From Candidatus Auribacterota bacterium (GTDB lineage: Bacteria > Auribacterota > UBA6266): DNA of 5,045 nucleotides. How positions within the stretch are numbered: the stretch's first letter is position 1; the number at the start of each line of letters is the position of its first letter. Both the position numbers and the translations under genes were made by a program. The DNA is taken from contig JAGLRQ010000100.1 in the NCBI GenBank assembly GCA_023136205.1, positions 1-5,045 on the forward strand, read 5' to 3'. Shown piece by piece: positions 1-5,045 of this stretch. The notes under the pieces were generated by a model. The model was not told where the DNA came from, did no database searches, and was given only the letters and a program-made list of their open reading frames with translations.

Positions 1-366
1 GTTCGCATCCTGGATATTATACAATTTGGACAGGGCCAAAGTCGATTTTCCAAGGATATAACTCATGTACCATATGGTATAAGCGTCAAAGTGTGTAAGC
101 TTTTTATTTTTAAGGAAATTTTTAAAGTCAATTTCGGCAAATATATCGGGATAATCTCCGGTAATAGTATTTACATCGCCAACCATGGAAAGAAGGGTAT
201 CCTGCGGTACTCCGAACATAGATTCAAGGGCTACCCATGGCACGCCGTTGTTAGAAAGGCTTGCTATTTCCAGAGCATCCAGGAAGCCTACCTTCTCCGC
301 AGCCTGGAGATATTTCTCTGACCACCAGGTAACAATTTCTTCCCCTAACATTAAATCCGTGAACAT
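1..366 (-). repeat. Protein-level tandem module C (first 122 aa only; continues beyond the window)
   Basis: MFTDLMLGEEIVTWWSEKY...GFLDAL...VPWVALESMFGVPQDT...GDYPDIF...HFDAYTIWY...LYNIQ aligns position for position with the starts of modules A and B. Confidence 0.8.
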
Positions 367-3300
367 TTGAGGAGGCAAATTGTAACAAAATTCATCCGAT
401 TGATGGGCTTCCACAGGCATGCCCATATCAGTAAGCACGGCTCCAAAACTCGTGCCTGTCAAAGAAGGATCCTGAAAATACAAACTGTTCCTGAAATTAA
501 CAACCGCGTTTACATTATAAGCGCCAGGATTAAGCCCTTCTTTTAAAACGCTTACGTCAAAATAATAAAACTTGCTGTCCGCAGTCTTTATAACCATCAA
601 ATATTCATAGCAGTATTCACCCGCAACGCCGAAAACACCGAAAATCTCAGATACAGCACCTATATCTATGTTCCCTTCAAGACAGATATTATAAAGCAGG
701 CCCTGGGCATATAACGCGTTTTCTATATTAAGGCGGGCGTAATTCTTGATTTCCCGGGTTTCATCGGGAAAGCCTTCTATCCAGTCTATGGGATTCTCCG
801 ATTCTATTATCGCTTTAGCTTCAGCGACCGCGTCAGCATCTACACCGGTAAGGGTATCAAACAAACCTAAAATCTGTTTAACCCTCATCCCGTCTAATCT
901 CATGGCATCATAAAAACCAAGAAGAATGGCATAATTATTTAACGGTAAAAGCTGACCTTTTAAGTGACTAAATAAATTTGCAAGGGTTTCAATATCATAA
1001 ACCGCATAGTCAAAATCAAAATATTTAGCTGTATACACACCTGAATTATCTTCTTCAAAAATAACGTTTGCAGATTTTAAATCCTTAGGAATTATATTTT
1101 GGCCGGCTCCTTTCCATATCATGTAAAGAGAGGCGCTTTCTTCGCGAACAATTAAATTCAGAATATTTATTCTTTCCGGCTCTCCCAGTTTTTGCACCAT
1201 AAAATCTAAAAAATCCAGAGAACTATAGCCGTCTAAAAATCCACGCGTAAAAACTTCTTTGACAACTTCATCATAGGGATCCTCAATACTTATCACCATT
1301 CCCGATGGAGGAATGGGAATCTTTGCCTCTGAAATTTTATCTTTCCAATAGTTGTTAACAGGGATAAAAAATGTATTAAACTGTTCTTCTACCGACAAAG
1401 GCTGTGTATCATTATGCACATACCCAAAAACAAATGGTAATTCAGATTCAAAATATATTTTATACGATGTCTTATGATTGCCGCTGTTTAAGTACTCTAC
1501 TACCATATTAGAAACATCGGGCAGTTCCGCTTCCCCTATCCAGGCCAGAAGCATGCCATTGTCAATTAACGCTTTTTTAACCAACTGCATGCCGGTTGAA
1601 TAAAGGTTCCACTCTATATGTATCACTTTTCCGTTATAAACATAATCTTCCGCGGGAGGCCCATCACCCGTGGAAGAAAAACTTGCCTCAGTATATCCTC
1701 TATCCACCCAAGGCCCCGCGGAATCGGTATAAAAAGCAACCAGTTCTTCAAAACTATACCCCTTAGCTATCCTGGAAATATCCGCCAACTTAGCTTTATA
1801 CATTCCCGAACTAACTTCAATAAAACCTACAGCGGCGGGATCCGTCACAACCCAGCCTATACCGTTTTCACCCATTGTAGCGGCATAAACACTTTTTAGA
1901 AGGTTTAGCTCTATCTGGGTTATTTCAGTTTCAGTATATTCTCTTTCTATAAGCGTGGCTCTCGATGTATACCACCCTTCATTTGTGGCGTAACCCGCGC
2001 GGCCCGTGTAAGAATCCTGCCCCGTACCGTAGAGTTCAGGATAAATACTTTGATCTTTAAGAGTAACCAAGTCATTATAGGTACTAATAATATCCGGGGC
2101 ACCTTCCTTCTGTAAGGACAGCCAGAATCTTCGTACCCCTTCAACACTGTTCGTGACAATTATTTCGTAAACCGCTGTTCCATCGGTTCCATAACCGTAT
2201 TCTTCTGTTTTTATTGCTGCTATTTCATCCCGCGTAAAACCGGTGGCTCTTTCCAGCATTGACTTACCGTCTTCCCCTATCTCGGATAAAACACCTAAGG
2301 CCTCGTCTATGTCATAGGGGGAGATTTCAGGTAACTCGTTACCCTTTATAGAATCCTTATTTATCACAATATCCGCGTAAAAACCGTTATAGCGAAGAGG
2401 CCAAAGCCTTTCGCTGTAAACTTTTCCCTTAATCCTGACATGAGCACTAGCTTCTTCAATTATTTTTGCCCATACAGGGTCATTTGTTTTAAGGGTTTGA
2501 AGCAATACAGCGTTTTTAGATCCCAATAAACCATTCAAATCTACTAATCTAACTACCCGTATGTTATTTCCCATCGCAAAAGGTATATGGACAGTGTCTA
2601 TTATATTCTTAAAATATAAATCGTAATTTGCAAAATTATCTTGGTCGATAAGGCTGACAGCATCAAAATAAGCTCTCCATTCTTCCCTAAGACGTTGTTC
2701 TATCTGGTCAACAGGCACGTAAAAAGCGGTAACCTTATCAACAATGGCAGCAACCGTCGCGATCTTGATATTATATAATTCGGCAATGTCAATGTTTGCT
2801 ATGCCGAGATTATAACTCATAAACCATATGGTATAAGCTTCAAAGGGAAAAAGTTTCCCGGTATCAAGCTGTCTAAGGTATTGTTTAAAATCAGCGTCAA
2901 ATATATCGGGATAAGAACCGGTAATATCGTTTACATCCGCGGCTATGTTAAAAACAGTATTTTCCGGTATGCCAAATAAATATTCAAGCGTAGCCCAAGG
3001 TACGCCGCCCACACCGTTTATATCAGAAAAATCCGTAATGGCAAGAGCATCAAAGAAACCAAGGCCGGCGGCCGCGGCATCAGGATATTTCCCATAAAAC
3101 CAGTTTGTCACATCCTCGTCTATTAAAGGGCTAATTAAGGAAAAAGGCGGCAGGTTATAGCCAAAGCTATGGTGCTGTGTGGCTATAACCGGTTTATTCG
3201 TATCGGTTACAGCAAATCCCAATACCGCGGCTATCAAAGAAGGATTTTCAGCATGGAGAACACCGCGTAAATTAATTATTGAATTTGTATCATAGGTTGC

Positions 3301-5045
3301 CGGATCTATACCTTCTTTTAAAACATCTATATTAACATAATAGAATTTTCCATCAGTCGTTTTTACTGCCAAAAAATATTGATAGGTATATTCGCCGACC
3401 ATACCAAAAAACCCATACATTTCGAGGATGCTGTCCATATCAATATTCCCTTCAAGGCAGACATTGTAGAGCAATCCCTGATCATAAAAAGCGTTTTCTA
3501 TATTAGGGCGGGAATATAACTTTATTTCAACAGTCTCACCAGACAGGCCTTCCACCCAGGTAATAGCCGTTGGAGAGTCAAAAACAACAATAAAATCTTC
3601 TGTTACAAAACCTCTCTCACCCCAGGAACCGCTTGCATCGGAATAATATTCCACCATAGCGTTTTCCTCAAAACCCTTTGCTATCTTGCTTCCGTCAACT
3701 AAATAGGCATTGTATATTCCGGGGGCTTCCTGGAGAAAGCCTACGGCAGAGGGGTCGGTTATTACCCAGCCTATACCGCTTTCGCCCATAGTTAAAACGT
3801 AGACACTTTGTAATAAATTCAGTTCTAACCGGTTTATATCCGCGTCGGTAAAGCCTTCACCCAAAAGGTCGGCTCTGGCTGAATAAAGTATTCTCTCCGT
3901 AGCAAAACCTGTCCTGTCCGTGTAACTATCCACTGCCGTACCGTAAAAATTATCATAAGCGCACATATTTCCGAGATATCCGAGATTATCATAGGCAGTA
4001 TTTATAACAGGAGCTCCTTCTTTCTGGAGGTGAAGAAAAAATCTTCTTACATCTAATTTACTTTTCTTAACGAATATCTCATAGACAGCTATCTCACTGG
4101 AACCATAGCCGTAGGAGGCCCTTTCTTCGGTTATTATTTCTTTTATTTCATCCCTGCTAAAGCCGGAAGCTCTTTCCAGCATTGACTTGCCGTCTTCCCC
4201 TATTTCAGATAAGACGCCTAAGGCCTCATCTATGTCATAGGCGGAAATTTTGACCATTGCCGAGCCATCCAGATTTACTTTTATGCCTTCATAAAAACCA
4301 TTATAGCGAAGCGGCCAAATCCTCCTATGGTAGGCCTGATTTTTCATAACAACATCCTTTACGGATTGCTCAAATCTTTTTCCCCACTCAGGGTCAGAAT
4401 TCTTTAAACTTGCGATATACTCAATCGCCACACCTATGCCTAAAAAACTATTCAACTCCGCTATTTTGACCAACCGGATTTTGTTTGAGTTAACAAAAGG
4501 TATATGAACCTCATCTATAATATATTTGTAATATAAATCATAATTTTCAAAACCTAATTCATCTACAGCTTTGACTTCCTCAAAATACTGCCTCCATTCT
4601 ACGCGAAGGCGCTGTTCTATCTGGTCAACGGGAACATAAAGGGCGGTTACTCTCTCGGTTATGGCTATAAGGGTTGAAACCTGAATATTATATAATTGGG
4701 CCAGGCTGGTATTCGAATGTCCCAGGTTATAGTTTTCAAACCAAATGGTATAGGCGTCAAAAGGAGTAATTTTATTGATTTTTAACATCTTTTTAAATGC
4801 CGCATCAATAAATATATCAGGGTAGGATGCGGTTACGACAGTTACGTCCAATATCATATTAAACACGGTATCTTCGGCTAAACCGTTAAAGAGAAAAGCA
4901 ATAGCAGCGGCAGGAACGCCCGCGTCAAAAAAATCCGCGGCTGCCATGGCATCAAAGAAGCCAAGGCCAACGGACGCGGCATCAGGGTATTTCGCGTTAA
5001 ACCAGTCTGTTACTTCCTGATCTATTAGAGGGTCAATTAATGAAA
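1..5045 (-). CDS. Internal fragment (5' and 3' ends both outside the window) of a very large modular repeat protein of unknown function; 1,681 uninterrupted sense codons
   Basis: Hand translation of the reverse complement, codons 5043-5041 down to 3-1, runs from SLIDPLIDQEVTDWFNAKYPD... to ...LSKLYNIQDAN without any TAA/TAG/TGA. Equivalently, my line-by-line translation, plus direct + strand triplet checks on about 18 lines, found no tta/cta/tca in phase 1. At roughly one stop per 20 random triplets in ~40% GC DNA, about 80 stops would be expected by chance. The other frames are broken: the longest ORF in the supplied track is 93 aa. Paralogous segments inside the frame differ mainly at third codon positions, as expected for real coding sequence. 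Confidence 0.93.
664..705 (-). other. Conserved island 4, module B copy: QGLLYNICLEGNID
   Basis: Partner of 3439-3480. Confidence 0.8.
796..1680 (-). other. Module-B-specific inserted segment (about 295 aa) with no counterpart in module A
   Basis: The flanks align. B ...GPWVDRGYTEAS (ends at 1681) matches A ...GSWGERGFVT (ends at 3601). B NPIDWIEGFPDETREIKNYARLNIENALYAQGLLYNICLEGNID (starts at 795) matches A AITWVEGLSGETVEIKLYSRPNIENAFYDQGLLYNVCLEGNID. Between the flanks A has 11 aa (EDFIVVFDSPT) and B has about 295 aa. Boundaries are uncertain by about 10 codons. Confidence 0.75.
1822..1863 (-). other. Conserved island 3, module B copy: GIGWVVTDPAAVGF
   Basis: Partner of 3736-3777. Confidence 0.8.
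2221..2316 (-). other. Conserved island 1, module B copy: YDIDEALGVLSEIGEDGKSMLERATGFTRDEI
   Basis: Partner of 4144-4239; see that entry. Confidence 0.85.
2665..2721 (-). other. Conserved island 2, module B copy: YVPVDQIEQRLREEWRAYF
   Basis: Partner of 4582-4638; see that entry. Confidence 0.85.
3439..3480 (-). other. Conserved island 4, module A copy: QGLLYNVCLEGNID (contains the only Cys shared by both modules)
   Basis: Aligns with QGLLYNICLEGNID at 664-705. Confidence 0.8.
3736..3777 (-). other. Conserved island 3, module A copy: GIGWVITDPSAVGF
   Basis: Aligns with GIGWVVTDPAAVGF at 1822-1863. The conservation extends upstream: ELNLLQSVYVLTMGES in A versus ELNLLKSVYAATMGEN in B. Confidence 0.8.
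4144..4239 (-). other. Conserved island 1, module A copy: YDIDEALGVLSEIGEDGKSMLERASGFSRDEI
   Basis: 30 of 32 residues are identical to the module B copy at 2221-2316. Of the 12 nucleotide differences, 9 are single synonymous changes, one per codon. The two replacements are both Ser to Thr. Confidence 0.85.
4582..4638 (-). other. Conserved island 2, module A copy: YVPVDQIEQRLRVEWRQYF
   Basis: 17 of 19 residues are identical to the module B copy at 2665-2721. Seven codons differ only synonymously, including CGC versus AGG for Arg. Confidence 0.85.

Follow-up and report, generated by a model that had tools for sequence, protein, structure and literature searches.

Giant genes have been documented in the Omnitrophota and in other lineages of the Planctomycetes-Verrucomicrobia-Chlamydiae (PVC) group (10.1101/2023.11.21.568195; 10.64898/2026.06.07.730766), and a locus resembling a type II secretion system (T2SS) has been reported upstream of the giant genes of Omnitrophota (West-Roberts et al. 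2023; 10.1101/2023.11.21.568195). Within the Auribacterota, Candidatus Menyafoubacter encodes a secreted protein of ~6,000 amino acids (aa), which carries CASH beta-helix, polysaccharide lyase 6, RHS, adhesin and internalin domains (PMC12057145). Here, we describe another giant gene of this candidate phylum, an internal fragment of which fills a 5,045-nucleotide (nt) stretch of a Candidatus Auribacterota genome (assembly GCA_023136205.1, contig JAGLRQ010000100.1, positions 1 to 5,045), the whole of which is hereafter called the window. Based on predicted folds, the product of this gene is probably, in a judgement held with moderate confidence, an exported multi-domain scaffold presenting about eleven kinase-like domains, i.e., atypical kinases or pseudokinases that would bind ligands or nucleotides.

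The window is spanned from one edge to the other by a single minus-strand reading frame (5043..1, i.e., the translation of the reverse complement, 1-5043) of 1,681 codons without any stop, compared to 61, 85, 93, 138 and 174 stops in the other five frames according to an independent six-frame count. Judged from base composition, the probability of such a stop-free run arising by chance is ~3e-51, and the codon-position composition of the frame is coding-like, with 37% G at first and 37.5% T at third positions. As no in-frame TAA, TAG or TGA is present, an alternative genetic code is not needed. A Nei-Gojobori comparison of the 1,681 codons with the ortholog on contig L001, which is introduced below, returned a ratio of non-synonymous to synonymous substitution rates (dN/dS) of 0.25 (dN 0.069, dS 0.276), with values of 0.10 to 0.44 for the individual domains, the domain termed X below and the second copy of domain A lying at 0.34-0.44. 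The overall value indicates purifying selection, and a pseudogene or non-coding region is thereby excluded. Searches of the window against Rfam and against phage nucleotide sequences returned no match, and Tandem Repeats Finder identified no nucleotide tandem repeats in it. The window represents a genuine coding region that is under selection and uses the standard genetic code.

A first-pass annotation, made from the letters of the window and a list of its open reading frames (ORFs), had already called this stop-free frame, and its remark that the ORF track shows only four ORFs of 61-93 aa was reproduced exactly at a threshold of >=60 aa (91..321+, 185..370+, 1618..1899+ and 1947..2159-). ORFs extending past an edge of the sequence are not reported by the lister, and the long frame has neither start nor stop inside the window, which is why the track misses the gene. 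The four short ORFs, none of which has a Pfam match, are shadows of the long frame that overlap it or lie antisense to it. The suggestion, raised in the same annotation, that the track hints at a non-coding or recoded region is excluded by the standard code, the absence of stops and the dN/dS value, and the in-frame stop triplets that it had named as counter-evidence were looked for in the minus frame, with none being present.

Among 5.8 billion protein clusters, only two close relatives of the window protein were found, P0001 (1,135 aa, 96% identical) and P0002 (932 aa, 99% identical). Both are labelled 'hypothetical protein, partial' and originate from one metagenome-assembled genome (MAG) of Candidatus Aureabacteria, GCA_023139245.1, a phylum whose present name in the NCBI taxonomy is Candidatus Auribacterota, within the PVC group. 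P0002 has been annotated with an artificial Met start at an internal GTG, which is Val in the window. The nucleotide sequence of the window shares 97.5% identity with contig L002 (JAGLNX010000500) and 99.5% with contig L003 (JAGLNX010000526) of that MAG, and the window bridges these two contigs, whose mutual overlap amounts to only 25 nt (window ~1703-1727). The two near-identical contigs continue the frame on both sides, adding 22 aa upstream and 363 aa downstream; this agrees with the earlier proposal of a gene longer than 5 kb and open at both ends, and contradicts a stop and a start immediately outside the window, the other observation that had been named as speaking against it.

A scan of one genome per species furthermore identified a 19,417-bp contig, L001 (CBDURG010000023.1), with an ORF that occupies positions 1620-19415, up to the edge of the contig (5,932 codons, its 3' end still open). 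The window is collinear from end to end with residues 1742-3428 of the L001 protein, at 86.5% amino acid and 89.6% nucleotide identity, and the sole length difference over these 5 kb is an in-frame insertion of 18 nt (6 codons) in L001. L001, L002 and L003 are independent assemblies, and all are collinear with the window throughout. In L001, 1,741 residues precede and at least 2,504 follow the window-equivalent region, in line with the expectation that the full gene is probably much larger than the window. Cluster look-ups recovered at least eight fragments of the family from GCA_023139245.1 (P0010, P0005, P0001, P0002, P0006, P0022, P0023 and P0009), and the presence in this public MAG of at least eight entries labelled 'hypothetical protein, partial' illustrates the point, made previously, that pipelines in need of both a start and a stop miss the gene. 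Seven of the fragments align collinearly to the L001 protein, sharing 77-88% identity with it; the remaining one, P0009, is only 27-38% identical to it and may belong to a paralogous gene.

Fragment P0024, from a sister MAG, carries the C-terminal region to the equivalent of residue ~6,170, where it is still open, and with sister-MAG fragments included the window gene would therefore comprise at least ~6,170 codons. P0003, a relative that is complete but shorter (3,127 aa; gene at 154-9537 on a contig of 9,635 bp), has ~620 residues past the last alignable point, from which the full gene is estimated at 6.5-7 thousand aa, i.e., probably 6,500-7,000 codons. The family as a whole is small: an exhaustive phmmer search with window aa 482-1681 against 1.84 billion representative proteins yielded 18 proteins at E<=1e-3, most of which are fragments labelled Aureabacteria or Omnitrophota, and scans of metagenome contigs with the whole protein and with the T-domain alignment returned no relative.

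Self-comparison and iterative searches resolved the protein into three repeat units, A (486 aa), T (147 aa) and X (~280-295 aa), which are arranged as A-T / A-X-T / A in the window, the last A being represented by its first 123 aa. In the L001 protein, the order is signal-peptide-like start-[X-T]-[A-T]x3-[A-X-T]x2-[A-X]-unique C-terminal region. A module measures 630-930 aa and consists of a helical region, a probably kinase-like A part, an optional X and a final T. Accordingly, aa 1-633 of the window protein recur at aa 635-1558, with 52% identity and interrupted by a 246-aa insert, and a further repeat starts at ~aa 1552, and P0002 continues the A domain of module 3 by a further 363 residues. 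The modular layout described in the first-pass annotation, with a third module beginning near the downstream edge, is thus retained, but its upstream module starts essentially at the window edge, when modules are read in A-[X]-T phase, and is not well under way there: in P0001, from the same species, the preceding T domain ends in '...YNLPP' two residues before the first residue of the window. The coordinates of all units and motifs are collected in Table 1.

Paralogous copies of the units are ~45-65% identical in protein, and copies inside the window share 65-69% nucleotide identity; given this low identity and the lack of strict tandem repeats, the modules in the window represent old duplications. 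The segment covering T and the start of A (window minus-strand 4121-5035, plus strand 11-925) also matches a non-orthologous site, L001:13772-14686, at 89% nucleotide identity, as high as at the true ortholog site. This match suggests a recent intragenic duplication or gene conversion between modules in L001, and such a second copy helps to explain why short-read assemblies break at this locus.

Table 1. Coordinates of the modules, domains and motifs of the window gene; positions refer to the window and residues (aa) to its translation unless a homologue is named.
Feature	Position	Strand	Remarks
One continuous open frame, internal fragment of a giant gene	1..5043	-	1,681 codons, open at both window ends
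Module 1, domain A, N-terminal all-helical part (aa 1-250)	4294..5043	-	Helices H9-H246 in AlphaFold model, pLDDT ~55-90
Module 1, domain A, probable degenerate kinase-like alpha/beta part (aa 251-486)	3586..4293	-	Weak kinase Foldseek matches; 'LQK341E', 'T-D430-P', D450
Module 1, domain T (aa 487-634)	3142..3585	-	Two helices and beta strands; low confidence at aa 584-634
'YNLPP' linkers (aa 630-634 and 1554-1558)	3142-3156 and 370-384	-	T-to-A junctions
Module 2, domain A, helical part (aa 635-887)	2383..3141	-	52% identical to module 1
Module 2, domain A, probable degenerate kinase-like part (aa 888-1130)	1654..2382	-	'LQK979E', 'T-D1068-P'
Module 2, domain X (aa 1131-1411)	811..1653	-	Absent from module 1; complete protein-kinase-like fold in model (aa 1131-1425)
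Site of 18-nt insertion in L001	~1606-1611	-	After protein residue 1145, in N-terminal hairpin of domain X
Gly1207 in beta3 of X ('FVFG1207YV')	1423..1425	-	Position of the canonical ATP-anchoring Lys in P0016-P0019
Catalytic-loop-like motif of X, 'D1321-L-K-S-A-N1326'	1066..1083	-	Between beta6 and beta7
DFG-like motif of X, 'D1343-F-D1345'	1009..1017	-	Just after beta8
Module 2, domain T (aa 1412-1558)	370..810	-	Repeat comparison
Module 3, first 123 residues of domain A (aa 1559-1681)	1..369	-	Cut by window edge
HExxH sites in homologues	L001:18186-18330 (residue ~5523); P0003 aa 1850; P0007 aa 2488; P0012 aa 728; P0013 aa 616; P0024 aa 786		

Sequence searches were uninformative as to the nature of these units. 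The whole 1,681-aa translation returned nothing significant from Pfam, NCBIfam, PHROGs, PADLOC or PDB sequences, the 5,927-aa L001 ortholog was equally without a match in these collections, no known domain appearing at E<=1 in Pfam or NCBIfam, and the C-terminal region of the L001 protein and P0013 likewise gave no significant Pfam match. For domain X in particular, none of 16 sequences matched a kinase family in Pfam at E<=10, be it Pkinase, APH, RIO1, ABC1, Kdo or another, a profile search of the X alignment against PDB sequences found nothing, and hhalign comparisons of X with PKA/CDK2 and APH(3') sequences were not significant. The sole local resemblance in the latter comparison was that of 'IPVPxPG' to 'LPVPKVL', after alphaC.

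The predicted structure of X, in contrast to these blank profiles, has recognisable relatives. From a 16-sequence alignment, AlphaFold returned a model with a pLDDT of 93.0 and a pTM of 0.90 (the alignments used for structure prediction were made without the paralogous copies of L001), and a Foldseek search of this model against the PDB produced 1,149 matches at E<=1e-3. All 50 PDB matches listed are kinase structures with a probability of 1.00, at TM-scores of only 0.31-0.44, and they include PKR, PINK1, Lyn, GAK, AAK1, WaaP (6dfl) and the kinase domain of CurKC (7wj7). Since the matches listed are all kinases while sequence profiles are blank, X represents a predicted kinase-like fold that is unseen by sequence profiles. 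On the strength of the model, a protein-kinase-like bilobal fold, with a beta-rich N-lobe containing alphaC and a helical C-lobe, can confidently be assigned to X.

Motifs of X were placed by the order of secondary-structure elements, not by residue-level superposition. At the catalytic-loop position, Asp (D191 of the alignment, D1321 of the window protein) occurs in 12 of 15 sequences, while the Asn of this motif (N196 = N1326) is found in ten and replaced by Asp in three. The first Asp of the DFG-like motif (D213 = D1343) is present in 14 and the Phe in 13 of the 15 sequences, and the third residue is Asp or Glu in all of them. Furthermore, Q91, E172, W180 and G246 are invariant among these 15 sequences, which comprise copies and homologues. 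The distant homologues P0016-P0019 read 'VVKWV' or 'VLKYV' at beta3 and are the only ones to keep the canonical Lys, and the X copy of P0018 keeps both this Lys and an 'EQ' in alphaC, so that kinase activity is probable for the ancestor of the X domains. In present-day X domains, a Lys or Arg at the start of beta2, which is found in all 13 sequences compared, might substitute for the beta3 Lys.

In the model of A and T, residues 1-246 are all-helical, and residues ~254-486 form an alpha/beta unit that parallels X in strand and helix order. The helical part (aa 1-250) has no Pfam, NCBIfam or PDB sequence match, and a profile search of the A and T alignment against PDB sequences gave nothing significant. 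The last 90 residues of A cross-match the C-lobe of X in iterative searches, and none of the 12 copies departs from K341 ('LQKE'), D430 ('WxxTDPxAxGF') or D450, residues that would be compatible with a kinase fold. A is thus predicted, on somewhat better than even terms, to be a degenerate kinase-like domain. T, which is the best conserved of the repeat units (mean column identity of 75% among 10 copies), was also considered as a possible kinase N-lobe; this found no support, as hhalign shows no similarity of T to the N-lobe of X. The T-to-A junction is formed by a linker, 'F/C-x-Y-N-L-P-P', that is near-invariant in all copies, N144, P146 and P147 being invariant in the 10 T copies, and this linker may act as a hinge in the structure or, alternatively, be a site of processing.

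The N-terminus of the L001 protein reads MLDMPKRYFLILLFTVVSTCLLFNGSPAFS/ETP and is signal-peptide-like. A comparable start is seen in P0010, an N-terminal fragment from the same MAG as the near-identical contigs of the window, and likewise in P0003, P0007 and P0011; in a hydropathy scan, the N-terminus scored positive for L001 and not for P0010 at the threshold used. The same scan detected no further hydrophobic segment in the rest of the 5,932 L001 residues and none in the window. From a signal-peptide-like start without any other hydrophobic segment, export through the Sec system of a soluble or surface-associated product is inferred.

Homologues of X occur in fusions that point to a role of the wider family in the chemistry of nucleotides and sugar phosphates. 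An NTP_transferase domain (PF00483/PF12804) is joined to X in P0003 (aa 33-280) and P0007 (aa 35-317), in both cases after a signal-peptide-like start; P0003 also contains a Metallophos domain (calcineurin-like phosphoesterase, aa 2003-2269), and P0016 fuses X with a GNAT acetyltransferase (aa 63-142). An apparently exported nucleotidyltransferase, as seen in P0003 and P0007, is odd. The most distant X homologue is located inside P0018, a fusion protein of 7,287 aa that contains several hydrophobic segments and is encoded on a 108-kb contig; in P0018, HIT-like (HAHAHAHV) and phosphoglucomutase-like (GDGDR) motifs were read by eye and confirmed by no tool. Beyond the window, in the unique C-terminal region, the L001 protein, P0003, P0007, P0012, P0013, P0023 and P0024 all carry an HExxH motif with EG(H/D)A(Q/E) located ~40 residues further on; the combination HExxH...EG(H/D)A resembles the signature of gluzincin zinc peptidases.

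Taken together, these data are consistent with a giant chain that would leave the cytoplasm by the Sec route and form a long protein, either soluble or associated with the surface. In the ortholog, this chain would present about eleven kinase-like domains, namely six A, four X and one more at residues ~5131-5270 of the L001 protein, spaced by helical and T domains. Each is envisaged as an atypical nucleotide- or ligand-binding unit, X with its loop Asp/Asn and DFG-like Asp, and A with its invariant Lys and two Asp. Our best guess is that the array would bind in a multivalent manner to sugar or envelope substrates, and possibly act on them by phosphotransfer, either on the surface of the producing cell itself or on a partner cell; the C-terminal HExxH region may add a hydrolytic or processing activity.

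Several observations weigh against this proposal. The function is read from fold and motifs only, and ATP is scarce outside cells, which speaks against an extracellular kinase activity. The beta3 Lys has been lost in X (Gly in eight, Lys in four and Ala in one of the 13 sequences covering the column), the alphaC Glu position is variable even though the neighbouring Gln is invariant, and no obvious Gly-rich loop is present, because of which X may be catalytically dead. The A and T model, derived from a 12-sequence alignment, is of only medium confidence (pLDDT 69.7, pTM 0.44), its top Foldseek matches in PDB and BFVD, nearly all protein kinases, are weak (E 4e-3 to 5e-2), and the hhalign similarity of A to the X C-lobe (E ~1e-3) carries a probability of only 11-18%. 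The signal-peptide-like start was recognised by eye and with a hydropathy scan, in the ortholog and in a separate MAG contig, i.e., outside the window; a T2SS-like neighbourhood is seen at one distant homologue only, the upstream genes on contigs L001 and L006 being different; and the HExxH region matches no Pfam peptidase model.

Among the other explanations, a purely structural scaffold or adhesin deserves the most attention, in which dead pseudokinases would act as rigid spacers of a long surface fibre, without a ligand-specific pocket, and in which length and avidity would be what counts. The absence of the beta3 Lys and the alphaC Glu from X, the signal-peptide-like start combined with the lack of a transmembrane segment in 5,932 aa, and the moderately relaxed selection in X and the second A domain (dN/dS 0.34-0.44) would all suit such a fibre, and giant PVC proteins are generally read as adhesion or attack surfaces. 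However, residues at catalytic positions are kept among paralogs that are only ~50% identical (12/12 copies for A; D213 in 14/15 and D191 in 12/15 for X), a conservation across divergent copies that is not expected for mere spacers, and Pfam searches of the window and the ortholog detected none of the classical adhesin repeats, such as Ig, cadherin or beta-helix. A plain fibre is accordingly regarded as rather unlikely, while still deserving of serious consideration. More doubtful is a bolder version of the kinase-like reading, i.e., an exported 'poly-kinase' of ~6-7 thousand aa from a kinase-like family absent from Pfam, whose dozen or so atypical functional sites would act on glycans or proteins of a partner or prey, by phosphorylating or tightly binding them, possibly with cleavage at NLPP by its own HExxH domain to release effectors. 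The related notion of a polyprotein, a precursor cut at the 'YNLPP' T/A linkers by that domain or by another protease so as to release kinase-like proteins or effectors, is less probable again: the strong conservation of the T-to-A linker (N144, P146 and P147 across 10 T copies) and of HExxH...EG(H/D)A in the C-terminal region of the family would fit it, and autoproteolysis has been suggested for giant proteins of Omnitrophota, yet no peptidase family is matched, and conserved linkers can equally be structural.

Two further possibilities are barely credible by comparison. That the stop-free frame is not a gene at all, being instead non-coding, recoded, a pseudogene or an artefact of assembly by the collapse or chaining of repeats, might be thought from the four short ORFs of the track and from a repetitive locus at which public assemblies break. 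This is countered by the chance expectation of ~3e-51, the dN/dS of 0.25, the preservation of the frame by the only indel that separates the window from a relative with 10% nucleotide divergence, the three collinear assemblies (L001, L002 and L003), the pLDDT of 93 for the X model, and the lack of nucleotide tandem repeats and Rfam matches; a recoded region, a pseudogene and an assembly chimera were ruled out by those tests. A non-ribosomal peptide synthetase (NRPS), polyketide synthase (PKS) or other known modular enzyme, as could be imagined from large repeated modules of 630-930 aa, has a probability close to nil, since the folds found are kinase-like and helical and since no condensation, adenylation, carrier, ketosynthase (KS), acyltransferase (AT) or other known domain was found at E<=1 in the window or the 5,927-aa ortholog with Pfam and NCBIfam. 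NRPS/PKS-type modules are thus refuted at the sensitivity of profile hidden Markov model and fold searches, and the exported array of atypical kinase or pseudokinase domains is the reading retained here.

With regard to genomic context, the gene for P0007 (3,653 aa; L005:10001-20962) lies directly downstream of an operon resembling those of T2SS and type IV pili (L005:1-9709), which encodes PilM/N/O, N_methyl pseudopilins, T2SSJ/K/C and a secretin. No T2SS-like locus is present in the 1.6 kb upstream in L001, nor in the 6.2 kb upstream in L006, a contig from the same species as the window. The upstream neighbour in L006 encodes a 1,978-aa RCC1/WD40_RLD repeat protein (L006:12-5948), and that in L001 a Gly-rich protein that contains GGxGxG-like runs and is not matched by Pfam (L001:2-652). 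In L001, ~980 bp before the start codon are without a convincing ORF; a promoter-like TTGAAA-17-TAAAAT (TG-extended) occurs at L001 1468-1496, such sites being no commoner there than by chance.

Giant genes of the PVC group are a recognised blind spot, owing to shattered assemblies, labels such as 'hypothetical protein, partial' and sequence without known domains, and all three are encountered at the locus of the window. Here, the repeat unit has been identified, as a tandem array of predicted kinase-like domains belonging to a family that is detected by structure prediction and missed by sequence profiles. If these domains bind or modify the envelopes of other cells, they would constitute a new tool of cell-cell interaction in uncultured Auribacterota and Omnitrophota, and also a new branch of the kinase-like superfamily open to biochemistry. 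In practical terms, ORF tracks that drop frames open at both ends hide such genes.

The ~6,000-aa protein of Ca. Menyafoubacter is similar to the product of the window gene in its candidate phylum, its size, its lack of a transmembrane helix and its suggested extracellular location, and its Sec-type signal peptide has a putative counterpart in the signal-peptide-like start of the L001 protein, but none of its domains was found in the window or the L001 protein. With the giant genes of Omnitrophota (Archaeovorins and Dockerin-type), the window gene shares its PVC affiliation, an ORF that fills whole contigs and is broken by short reads, a mostly unannotated product and the need for structure prediction. 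Furthermore, P0007 follows directly on a T2SS-like operon, as in those genes, P0018 resembles their multi-enzyme class, and P0011 and P0012 are labelled Omnitrophota. In contrast, the window gene is shorter (~6-7 thousand versus >30 thousand aa), and in the window and the 5,932 aa of L001, beyond which the C-terminal end of the gene extends, neither the numerous transmembrane regions, SecA/DEAD and HEAT/TPR of the Archaeovorins were found, nor, in the window and L001, any dockerin, TSP3 or other Pfam repeat of the Dockerin-type giants. The repeat unit is also distinct in being kinase-like, the papers on those giants mentioning only kinases of the PPDK, ROK and hexokinase types.

LicA/LicC and AmgK/MurU are activation pairs of a kinase and a nucleotidyltransferase, to which P0003 and P0007, joining an N-terminal NTP_transferase with X domains in one chain, bear a likeness that is offered as a lead only. 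The ortholog of the window gene differs from these in that it lacks an NTP_transferase, its signal-peptide-like start being directly followed by X, and X has no similarity to APH or choline kinase sequences. Finally, with the protein-kinase-like (PKL) superfamily, including WaaP, APH/choline-kinase-like proteins and the kinase domain of lanthipeptide synthetases, X shares the bilobal fold of its model, with D-x4-N and D-F-D at the canonical places. It is set apart by the absence of a sequence match to Pfam kinases or PDB chains, by a beta3 Gly in place of Lys in the clade of the window, and by the lack of an evident Gly-rich loop. A non-exhaustive literature search found no report of a tandem kinase-like array among bacterial kinases, and it is in this respect that the present locus differs most visibly from known PKL proteins, with about eleven predicted kinase-like domains in tandem in one apparently exported polypeptide.

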